Part shown: in pieces, positions 24,800 through 27,700 of the stretch
How positions within the stretch are numbered: position 1 is the first letter of the stretch
Layout of the letters: each line of letters starts with the position of its first letter
DNA from: an uncultured Candidatus Saccharibacteria bacterium
GTDB taxonomy: Bacteria > Patescibacteriota > Minisyncoccia > Phycocordibacterales > UBA1006
Reading direction: 5' to 3'
Length of the DNA stretch: 64,000 bases
NCBI GenBank assembly: GCA_964628065.1
Contig: CAZVLM010000001.1
Span: forward strand, 9,357-73,356
Made by a program: the position numbers and the translations under genes
The notes under the pieces: generated by a model
Seen by the model: only the letters and a program-made list of their open reading frames with translations
Database searches by the model: none
Told to the model about the DNA's origin: nothing

Positions 24800-27700
24800 C
24801 TCAAGGTAAAGTGCTTTTCAGATTTCCTAATAGGATATGGACAATTAGTACTCCTCGACTGCATGCATTACTGCACTTGCATCTAGAGCCTATCAACCTA
24901 ATAATCTCTTAGGGTCCTATGATTTCTTATCTTGGAGCTGGCTTCCCTCTTAGATGCTTTCAGAGGTTATCCATTCCCGACTTAGCTACTGAGCAGTGCC
25001 ACTGGCGTGACAGCTCATAGACCAGAGGTCAGTTCATCTCGGTCCTCTCGTACTAGAGACAAATCTCCTCAAAAATCGACGCCTGCAGTAGATAGGAGAC
25101 CAACCTGTCTTGCGCATCTTTTCTTACATTACTGTAAGGATTGGACTATAACTTAATCTTATTTCTAAGATCTTCAACATTTAGTCTCTACGGGCTTCTC
25201 AGATTTCTCTCAGAATTCCCTCGGGGTCGTCCACTATTTGTTAATAGTTAGGATTTCACCGATATAAGTTGAACATGTACATATAAATCACTTTATATGA
25301 CCGCCGCAATTATGGTTGTATCATCAACAGTCTTTTATAATTTATGACTGTTATCTATCTTTTGCCTTGAAATAAATTCAAGGACTTTATCAAACGAAAT
25401 TGACTTCATATATATTACTTAAATATTCGATAACAAATGCCTCGGGATTCAGACGGTAAAGTGCTCTTTAGCAACAGGAGTTGCACAAAAAAACACTTAA
25501 CGGTCTGAACCCAGCTCGCGTATCATTTTAATTGGCGAACAGCCAAACCCTTGGGACCTTCTCCAGCCCCAGGATATGATGAGCCGACATCGAGGTGCCG
25601 AACTTCGCCGTCGCTGTGGACGCTCGGGCGAAACTAGCCTGTTATCCCCGGAGTAGCTTTTATCCGTTGAGCTTCCCCTGCATCTAATGCAAAAGGTCGG
25701 ATCACTATGCTCTGCTTTCGCACCTGCTCGTCATGTACGACTTGCAGTCAAGCCATCTTGTGCCATTACACTATCGGCATGGTTTCCATTCACGCCTAGA
25801 TGACCTTTGTAGGCCCCTCCGTTACTCTTTAGGAGGGATTCGCCCCAAACAAACTACCCACCATACACTGTCTTTGAACGTTTTTTCGCCCAAGTTAGGA
25901 CATATCTCGTTGCAGAATGGTATTTCACTGACGAGTCCACAAGAACCGAGATCCTTGCTTCAACCTCTCCCATCTATGCTACGCAGCAAAAAAATATGCC
26001 CAATGTAAAGCTATAGTAAAGCTTCCGGGGTCTTTTCGTCTAACTGCAGGTAACCGGCATCTTCACCGGTATTGTATTTTCACCGAGCAAATCCTCGAGA
26101 CAGTTCCCCAGTCATTACACCATTCGTGCGCGTCGGAACTTACCCGACAAGGTATTTCGCTACCTTAGGACCGTTATAGTTACGGCCGACATTCACCAGG
26201 GCTTATAACAGTCAGCTTGCACAATATAAATATTGTATCGCACCGCCATTATTTAACCTTCTGGCATTGGTCAGGTGTCACCCCCTATACATCATCTTAC
26301 GATTTAGCAGGGAGCTGTGTTTTTGATAAACAGTTGCCAGGGAGACTTTCGCTGCGGCCCATCTTACGATGGGCAGGCCTTATTCCGAAGTTACGGCCGC
26401 TTTTTTGCCGAGTTCCTTGAGGATCCTTCACTCGTTCGTCTTGGTCTACTCGACCTAGTCGTCTGTTTCGATTTGCGGTACGGTTCCAAATATGTTGAAT
26501 GCTAGAAGATTTTCTCGGAAGGCTCTTCATGTACATTTCATCGGCCGAAGCCTCAGATTTCATCTCTCGACGGTTCTTGTGCAGCCCGGATTTTCCTAAG
26601 CTACGAACCTGAAAGTAATAACGCAAATCCAATAATGCGCGTACATTTGTATCCTCCGTCCCTCCATCGCCATATTTGAAGTCATGGAATATTAACCATG
26701 TGTCCATCGGTTTCGGCTATCGCCATTACCTTAGGCCCGACTAACCCTGCTTTGATTGACATTGAACAGGAAACCTTGACTTTTCGACGGTAGCGGTTTT
26801 CACGCTACTTGTGGTTACTTGTGCCAACATTCTTGCTTCCCAACGCTCCACGGTGGCTCACGCCTTCCGCTTCAACGCAGATGGGAATACTCTCCTACCA
26901 CGTCCCGTCACCTAGATGACGGGACATCCTCAACTTCGGTACCATGTTTAACCCCGATTATTTGCGGCGCCAAATCTCTTGATGAGTGAGCTGTTACGCT
27001 TTCTTTAAATGATGGCTGCTTCTAAGCCAACATCCTCATTGTCTAAGAAATCTGACCTCCTTAAGTGTACTGAACATGAATTTAGGGACCTTAATTTGAG
27101 ATCTACGGCTGTTTCCGTTTTGACTCGTGGAGCTTCGCCCCCACTGTCTAACTGCTATGCTATAACCTTTGGTATTCGGAGGTTGATAGGTTTTGCGAGA
27201 TTGCTCCCTGTCAAAACCATCCAGTGCTCTACCCCCAAAGGGAACACATAACGCCAGCCCAAAAGCTGTTTCGGAGAGAACCAGCTATTACCAAGTTCGA
27301 TTAGCTTTTCACTCCAACCCACAGGTCATCCGAAAGTATTGCACGGCTTATCGGTTCGGACCTCCATCCATCTTTCGATGAACTTCATCCTGCCCATGGG
27401 TAGATCACTTGGTTTCGGGTCTATAGCTTACGACATAAATTTCGCCCTATTCAGACTCGCTTTCGCTGTGGCTCCACGCATTTAAAGCGCTTAGCCTGCC
27501 GCATGCTATAACTCGTTGGCTCATTCTTCAATAGGCACGCCGTGACGGTAATAAATTACCGCTCCGACTCCTTGTAGGCGTAGGGTTTCAGATCTATTTC
27601 ACTCCCCTCTCCGGGGTTCTTTTCACCTTTCCCTCACGGTACTAGTTCACTATCGGTCTCATGGAATATTTAGCCTTACCGGTTAGTTCCGGCAAATTCC

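Follow-up and report, generated by a model that had tools for sequence, protein, structure and literature searches.

A very probable group I intron without an endonuclease gene at position 2593 of a Patescibacteria 23S rRNA gene, with a predicted second helix to its 5′ exon

Introduction

In bacteria of the Candidate Phyla Radiation (CPR), 45% of 968 insertions in 23S rRNA genes are group I introns, and position 2593 is one of the sites close to the peptidyl-transferase centre at which LAGLIDADG-bearing insertions recur (Tsurumaki et al. 2024, PMC11270868). The same large-subunit site, L2593, carries introns in the cyanobacteria Synechococcus C1 and C9 and Thermosynechococcus (PMC1995217). Here we analyzed a 64-kb stretch of contig CAZVLM010000001.1 (hereafter the window), in which the 23S rRNA gene is split on the minus strand by a 385-nt insert at the same position. 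We conclude with high confidence that this insert is a group I intron that lacks a homing-endonuclease gene (HEG), its splicing being a prediction. The intron belongs to an L2593 intron family that is widespread in Patescibacteria. It is of a known kind, 23S group I introns of CPR bacteria including those at position 2593 having already been published, and it adds one member without an open reading frame (ORF). Computation also revealed a second helix between intron and 5′ exon, next to the splice-site helix P1.

Results

The insert interrupts helix 93 of an otherwise full-length 23S rRNA gene

A search with the Rfam bacterial large-subunit (LSU) rRNA model recovered one 23S gene in the 64 kb, full length apart from the insert and measuring 3364 nt with the intron and 2979 nt as exons alone. 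Read along the minus strand, the motif of the peptidyl-transferase region is broken up as ...GCUGGGUUCAGACCGU / 385 nt / CGCAAGACAGGUUGG..., within the context ...GCGAGCUGGGUUCAGACCGU / UAAGUG...(intron)...AAAAGAUG / CGCAAGACAGGUUGGUC... In E. coli rrlH the corresponding motif, GGGTTTAGAACGT/CGTGAGACAG, spans 2581–2603, so that the break corresponds to the U2593/C2594 junction. The LSU covariance model agrees, putting the insertion within the hairpin of helix 93 (H93), where the model reads GaaCGUC, 4 nt, GACAG and the window reads GACCGUU, 389 nt, GACAG. The boundaries are fixed and cannot slide, because the bases flanking each junction differ: the exon ends at U25500, the insert runs from U25499 to G25115, and the next exon base is C25114. 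The features of the host gene are as follows.

24826..28189, minus strand: host 23S rRNA gene (Rfam RF02541, LSU_rRNA_bacteria, 2359.5 bits, model positions 1–2925, full length)
25500..25512, minus strand: end of the 5′ exon, GGGUUCAGACCGU, equivalent to E. coli G2581–U2593 by sequence and E. coli numbering; 5′ splice site after U25500
25115..25499, minus strand: predicted group I intron, 385 nt, 33% GC, without ORF
25110..25114, minus strand: start of the 3′ exon, CGCAA (C2594 onwards), with the H93 tetraloop GCAA inside; partner of P10

Read from the sequence against E. coli, exon joining regenerates a regular H93 closed by the GCAA tetraloop and paired at G2588·U2606, A2589-U2605, C2590-G2604, C2591-G2603, G2592-C2601, U2593-A2600 and C2594-G2599. 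The insert thus splits the H93 stem, beside A2602 and the peptidyl-transferase centre. An initial annotation of this DNA had proposed an AT-rich insert of 393 nt at 25115-25507 in the L2593 site of 23S rRNA, leaving the strand unstated. The site was borne out by E. coli numbering and by the LSU model, and so was the composition (33.0% GC against 47.5% in the 2979-nt exons). The extent had to be corrected to 385 nt, 25499..25115 on the minus strand, since position 25507 lies 8 nt inside the 5′ exon. As that annotation had stated, no ORF of 60 aa or more is present, the longest ORFs of the insert being 24 and 23 aa in the sense direction and 36 aa on the opposite strand.

Covariance models and a structure-blind alignment identify a group I core

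The Rfam model Intron_gpI (RF00028), named in the initial annotation as the means of checking its group I proposal, matched 25338..25122 (minus strand) over model positions 1–253 with 57.4 bits (E 6e-12 for the 64-kb window), which passes the gathering score of 50. A second covariance model (R1) was built from 20 related introns with the window left out, and covered 161 positions from P3 to the terminal G. It gave a single match in the window at 25276..25115 (minus strand), with 129.2 bits, an E value of about 2e-30 and all of its positions (1–161 of 161) aligned, and this match stopped exactly on the predicted omega-G.

Relatives came from a scan of one genome per prokaryotic species with the pattern TATAGTC-N20-50-G-CGYRAGACAGKT, which returned at least 120 loci (cited below by L numbers); the genome of the window did not appear among the matches listed. 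The matches listed were mostly metagenome-assembled genomes (MAGs) of Patescibacteria, most with an insert at the same rRNA position, and about half of the matches listed formed one family with the window, having 67–79% core identity and sharing the motifs CGGCGG, ATATCGG, CCGAGGGAA, GTAGAGACT and TATAGTCC.

Twenty-seven ORF-less cores, the window plus 26 others, were aligned with MAFFT without fitting to structure, and the alignment was scored against a P2–P10 model drawn on the window sequence. Standard pairs occupied 88.5% of cells, compared to 34–43% after the partners were slid by 1–3 columns, and compensatory changes on both sides were seen in 44 of the 61 pairs. P2, P3, P5, P6, P8, P9 and P10 covaried, while P7 was invariant and P4 largely so, both being nearly always paired. 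The P3–P7 core, on whose foldability the initial annotation had made the group I reading depend, therefore folds and covaries together with P8 and P9. All 51 columns that were invariant in the other 26 sequences were kept in the window, which argues against the earlier suggestion of a degenerate intron and leaves standing the ORF-less half of that suggestion. The window deviated at seven near-invariant columns; two of these constitute a compensatory change in P10, two lie in P4, one retains a GNRA loop and one falls in the joining region J2/3. The elements of the core are listed below; intron position n corresponds to window coordinate 25500 − n.

25280..25299, minus strand: P2 hairpin, 8 bp, GNRA-type loop GUGA; compensatory changes in 8/8 pairs
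25268..25273, minus strand: P3 5′ strand, UUCAAC; both-side changes in 6/6 pairs, 91% of cells paired
25192..25262, minus strand: P4-P5-P6 domain, from covariation scoring of the alignment
25262-25257 with 25226-25221, minus strand: P4, UCGGUG/CCCCGA, with one U × C mismatch
25253-25230, minus strand: P5/P5a
25220-25192, minus strand: P6/P6a with GAAA loop, a 29-nt hairpin; location of the endonuclease gene in relatives
25184..25188, minus strand: P7 5′ strand, G-A(bulge)-G-A-C; invariant in 27/27, 100% paired
25173..25178, minus strand: P3 3′ strand, GUUGAA; forms the P3/P7 pseudoknot together with P7
25155..25172, minus strand: P8 hairpin, GAAA loop; both-side changes in 7/7 pairs
25143..25154, minus strand: J8/7 (AAGUUAUA), then P7 3′ strand (GUCC); UAUAGUCC invariant in the family
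25123..25138, minus strand: P9 hairpin, 6 bp, GUAA loop; both-side changes in 6/6 pairs, 99% of cells paired
25115..25115, minus strand: terminal G (omega-G), an invariant column preceded by a short tail; the 3′ splice site follows

The joining segment J4/5 reads AAA, and P7 is proposed, from its sequence, to be the guanosine-binding helix. The spacer between P7 and the P3 3′ strand consists only of UAAAU (5 nt) and contains neither P7.1 nor P7.2, the peripheral helices present in L2593 introns of the subgroup IA type. Two relatives, L043 and L105, carried a 43-nt insertion right after the P7 5′ strand (alignment columns 213–255), at the P7.1/P7.2 position; within the 27-core alignment this insertion was confined to these two and was absent from the window. 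A remnant endonuclease gene was ruled out, because the insert has no ORF and P6 is a minimal hairpin.

A contiguous guide pairs with both exons

The initial annotation had named, as a further check, a P1–P9 fold in which an internal guide pairs with the exon U. We found this fold, with the guide, 5′-UUGCG/GCGGUC-3′ (25309..25299, minus strand), lying at intron nt 191–201, behind a large structured P1 loop. Its two strands pair as follows.

25305..25309, minus strand: guide P10 strand, UUGCG, paired with CGCAA of the 3′ exon
25299..25304, minus strand: guide P1 strand, GCGGUC, paired with GACCGU of the 5′ exon, with the wobble U25500·G25304 at the splice site

An exon ending in U and an insert ending in G, as had been noted before, are accommodated by this wobble and by the terminal G25115. 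The P1 pairing CCGU/GCGG, including the U·G, was present in 36/36 distinct exon/intron combinations of the family. P10 covaried at two positions: most members have CGUG/CACG, the window and L012 have CGCAA/UUGCG, and rarer variants are CGUAA/UUACG in L076 and CGUA/UACG in L073. As a prediction test, metagenome contigs were scanned for the UUGCG guide variant, and 13/13 matches fell in 23S genes. Eleven of them were readable into the 3′ exon, which was CGCAA in seven and CGUGA in four, the latter pairing via two wobbles. The P10 change in the window is matched to the organism's own H93 loop, implying ongoing selection for exon pairing.

The long hairpin that can form across the 5′ splice site was considered as the catalytic P1 and rejected, because the splice-site U would face A in 28/36 combinations; it is also disfavoured by the covarying P10 strand, which is contiguous with GCGG instead. 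As a separate observation, AAGACUGUU at window 25326-25334 (minus strand) resembles the end of the 5′ exon and can pair with the guide, and ACUGUU recurs at a similar location in L132, L102, L016, L053 and L037. It may serve for cyclisation, compete with P1 or simply be one side of the local hairpin ACAGUC/GACUGU.

The 5′ domain forms a second helix with the 5′ exon

With the guide at nt 191–201, intron nt 1–190 are formally the loop of P1. Three parts could be distinguished in this loop.

25459..25498, minus strand: P1a, the first hairpin (intron nt 2–41), from minimum-free-energy (MFE) folds, between the 5′ splice site and the exon-binding segment
25445..25457, minus strand: exon-binding segment (EB), ACCGUCUGAAUCC (intron nt 43–55), complementary to exon G2581–C2590
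25310..25444, minus strand: variable AT-rich peripheral region (intron nt 56–190) with several hairpins

A hairpin at the position of P1a, differing in sequence, was predicted in 51/52 family members, and the MFE fold of the exon plus the intron through EB formed the EB–exon helix with an inner hairpin in 51/52. Positions 2588 and 2586 are the only exon positions facing EB that vary in the family, and both covary with it: G2588A is accompanied by C-to-U in 10 combinations and C2586U by G-to-A in two, none being left unpaired. Raw complementarity between EB and exon is weak when G·U is allowed, shuffled sequences often reaching 8–9 of 10, and the argument for the helix therefore relies on homologous position and covariation. 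On these grounds, a second helix between intron nt 43–55 and exon nt 2581–2590, next to P1, is shown by computation. We infer that EB helix and P1 make up an H-type pseudoknot, with the two helices stacked on each other and the exon strand passing through both. The AC at the 5′ end of EB stands opposite G2592-U2593 in most members including the window (paired in 35/36 and 32/36 combinations), so that a closed hairpin across the splice site can compete with P1.

These features led us to a tentative proposal for the CPR L2593 family, one that we consider possible and rather doubtful: the 5′ exon would be recognized in two parts, by a P1 of 4–6 bp and by an EB helix of 9–10 bp that extends P1 coaxially on the exon side as an H-type pseudoknot, with the same segment alternatively able to close the hairpin across the splice site in competition with P1. 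The EB helix may clamp the exon, arise as an intermediate of folding or work as a switch; it would amount to a natural extended guide, and possibly to a conformational switch timing splicing during 50S assembly. A shallow literature search found no description of such an exon-binding helix and no published secondary-structure model of the CPR L2593 intron family.

In a subfamily of short forms, such as L105, P1a is missing and the segment measures only 7 nt, so that ACCGU stays in a loop. The region of nt 56–190 shares the motifs UUUCGUUU, AAGAUAGA and ACCAUAA with relatives and exceeds its counterpart in the closest and the minimal relatives by ~60–120 nt. The idea that the 5′ ~190 nt represent a separate inserted element, a duplication or a repeat was rejected, P1a and EB being present in essentially all relatives; a BLAST comparison of the intron with the window returned nothing beyond chance matches of 11–15 nt.

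Predicted splicing and the alternatives

The precursor rRNA would be spliced by two guanosine-initiated transesterifications, restoring H93 (GACCGU-CGCAAG-AC) with the expected junction GGGUUCAGACCGU/CGCAAGACAGG. The EB helix would stack on the short P1 as a pseudoknot and hold the 5′ exon, or might instead alternate with a closed hairpin in which the splice site is hidden. Without an endonuclease of its own, the intron would be inherited vertically, as the window copy presumably was, and would move only with an enzyme supplied in trans.

Several observations weigh against a spliced group I intron. Splicing of the window intron is a prediction from sequence. The RF00028 score exceeds the gathering score by 7 bits only, and P4 contains the U × C mismatch at a pair in which 24/26 relatives have A opposite the conserved U. 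P1 never varies and hence receives no support from covariation. The guide lies ~195 nt from the 5′ splice site and has two competitors, a stable hairpin spanning the splice site (exon, P1a and EB together, −34.5 kcal/mol) and the internal exon mimic AAGACUGUU. The Rfam alignment itself uses this mimic, and not the real exon, for P1; we rejected its P1 (25334..25326 to the guide), because the true exon end, 195 nt upstream, pairs with the same GCGGUC, and the model picks the look-alike because it expects the exon nearby.

Three other explanations of the insert were considered, and all fit poorly with an insert that lies inside H93, has an intact core and shows pairings with both exons that match the organism's own rRNA. 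The first, which we regard as improbable, is that the element is of group I origin and no longer self-splicing, either needing a protein cofactor or maturase in trans or being a decaying relic. This would agree with an intron that has no endonuclease or maturase gene, with the mismatch in P4 and with a long AT-rich P1 loop whose helices compete for the exon. Against it, the insert keeps 51/51 family-invariant core positions and scores 129 bits with the family model, and the P10 change that fits its own H93 loop points to continuing selection on exon pairing. Moreover, the gene concerned is the sole 23S gene in the window and otherwise full length.

Retention of the insert in mature 23S rRNA as an expansion is more improbable still. 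There is a precedent in the 23S group I intron of Simkania, reported as unspliced (Everett et al. 1999, as cited in PMC11270868), and this precedent is also a point against splicing here. An expansion at this site would split the H93 stem beside A2602 and the peptidyl-transferase centre, and a conserved pairing of the guide with both exons, through P1 and P10, makes sense only when the exons become ligated; furthermore, rRNA insertions of CPR bacteria are absent from transcripts in the work of Brown et al., as summarised in PMC11270868. Least credible of all is an intervening sequence that RNase III-type processing removes with no ligation of the flanks, leaving a fragmented 23S rRNA. Intervening sequences of this sort are known from bacterial 23S genes and, at other sites, from CPR bacteria (PMC11270868). 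The two ends of this insert, however, do not come together in a long stem, the MFE fold showing no more than 5 bp of pairing near the 3′ end; H93 belongs with the group I sites clustered at the peptidyl-transferase centre and is not among the intervening-sequence sites named in PMC11270868; and the insert contains a covarying group I core.

Relatives, host lineage and gene neighbourhood

Family members of ~670–750 nt carry an ORF of 150–180 aa in P6, and that of one relative matched I-MsoI (1.6e-38), I-CreI (1.8e-18) and Pfam LAGLIDADG_1. No LAGLIDADG ORF was found in the window intron, where the longest sense ORF has 24 aa and P6 is the 29-nt hairpin. The link drawn in the initial annotation between the insertion site and the I-CreI target agrees with the I-MsoI/I-CreI-type LAGLIDADG enzymes of the HEG-bearing relatives. 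I-CreI and I-MsoI are enzymes of chloroplast L2593 introns, I-CreI being encoded by the Cr.LSU intron of the Chlamydomonas chloroplast, which shares this insertion site.

The closest relative among the matches listed, on metagenome contig L132 (163–715), is an orthologous intron at the same site. The first 55 nt of the two introns are nearly identical, 311 aligned nt are 81% identical, and the UUGCG guide and CGCAAG exon are shared; P6 of L132 has an insertion of ~250 nt. Within this insertion, at L132:436-511 (plus strand), is a tRNA-like gene, reported by ARAGORN as 'tRNA-???' with an 8-nt anticodon loop, CUACAAAA, and scoring 56.6 bits with the Rfam tRNA model RF00005 (gathering score 29). 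Judged from its sequence, it would be a tRNA-like element within a group I intron within 23S rRNA; the window intron contains nothing comparable.

A second family of L2593 inserts (L006, L007, L013, L018, L021, L026 and others) looks unrelated. Its members start with A-A/G-A-T-T/C-A-C-A-T/C-T-G-C-G-T, carry GCGTTC or GCGTCC, resembling a guide, no more than ~10 nt from the 5′ end and occur in forms of ~300 nt and ~740 nt, in MAGs labelled Acidimicrobiaceae, Omnitrophota, Saccharibacteria and others. The scan pattern additionally matched MAGs labelled archaea.

The gene order 23S-5S-(259-aa protein)-FtsW is common to dozens of Patescibacteria loci, and FtsW of the window is 75.6% identical to that of L132 and 56–61% identical to those of MAGs labelled Saccharibacteria, Yonathbacteria, Paceibacterota and Minisyncoccia. 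Shared gene order and protein identity thus place the window in Patescibacteria, in keeping with the CPR context that the initial annotation had assumed and in which 23S introns are well documented (PMC11270868). The 5S gene lies at 24690..24584, downstream of the 23S gene on the minus strand. Next come, at 22480-24431 (minus strand), the 259-aa protein, without a Pfam match, and FtsW/RodA, an order kept in dozens of Patescibacteria contigs (L002-L135); the 259-aa protein is uncharacterised and widespread in Patescibacteria contigs at 21–63% identity. Neither a 16S rRNA gene nor a tRNA gene turned up in Rfam and tRNA gene searches of the whole 64-kb window. The 23S-5S pair is thus unlinked from 16S, and protein genes stand on either side of it.

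Two small extra blocks near the 5′ end of the 23S gene, relative to the bacterial model, are located at window 27878-27917 and 27830-27846 (minus strand); the first, ~40 nt long, follows model position 282, and the second, ~17 nt long, comes shortly afterwards. They look like helix extensions rather than introns. Elsewhere in the window, two adjacent paralogous genes at 31039-34181 (minus strand) encode proteins of 511 and 523 aa with an NHL-repeat beta-propeller and a CARDB domain.

Discussion

For annotation, these results mean that the 23S gene is intact and that the insert is best labelled an L2593 group I intron and not an assembly error or a sign of a pseudogene, one more ORF-less example of a phenomenon already catalogued for CPR bacteria. 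The EB helix and the distal guide, if true, would show how a very short P1 can be reinforced in a highly structured rRNA precursor, and the EB helix could inform the design of trans-splicing ribozymes.

The closest described systems are the 23S group I introns of CPR bacteria (Brown et al. 2015; PMC11270868), which have the same phylum-level host, gene, insertion site and Rfam family as the window intron. Their association with single-domain LAGLIDADG_1 endonucleases is found equally in the window's relatives. The window intron differs in having no ORF, and its distal guide and EB helix are described from the present analysis. The cyanobacterial L2593 introns share the site, and the HEG-bearing relatives of the window intron encode enzymes of the I-CreI/I-MsoI type. 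However, the cyanobacterial introns are ~745–890 nt long, contain an HEG and have ~65 nt of P7.1/P7.2 (PMC1995217), whereas the window intron has 5 nt at this position and neither helix. A resemblance of principle only exists to the extended guides of engineered trans-splicing ribozymes (PMC3895272, PMC6155759), in which an extra duplex beyond a short P1 raises substrate binding; by analogy, the EB helix of the window would act likewise on the 5′ exon. The engineered guides are designed, stand at the 5′ end of the ribozyme and pair downstream of the splice site, whereas the EB helix occurs naturally within the P1 loop, its partner being exon sequence upstream of the splice site.

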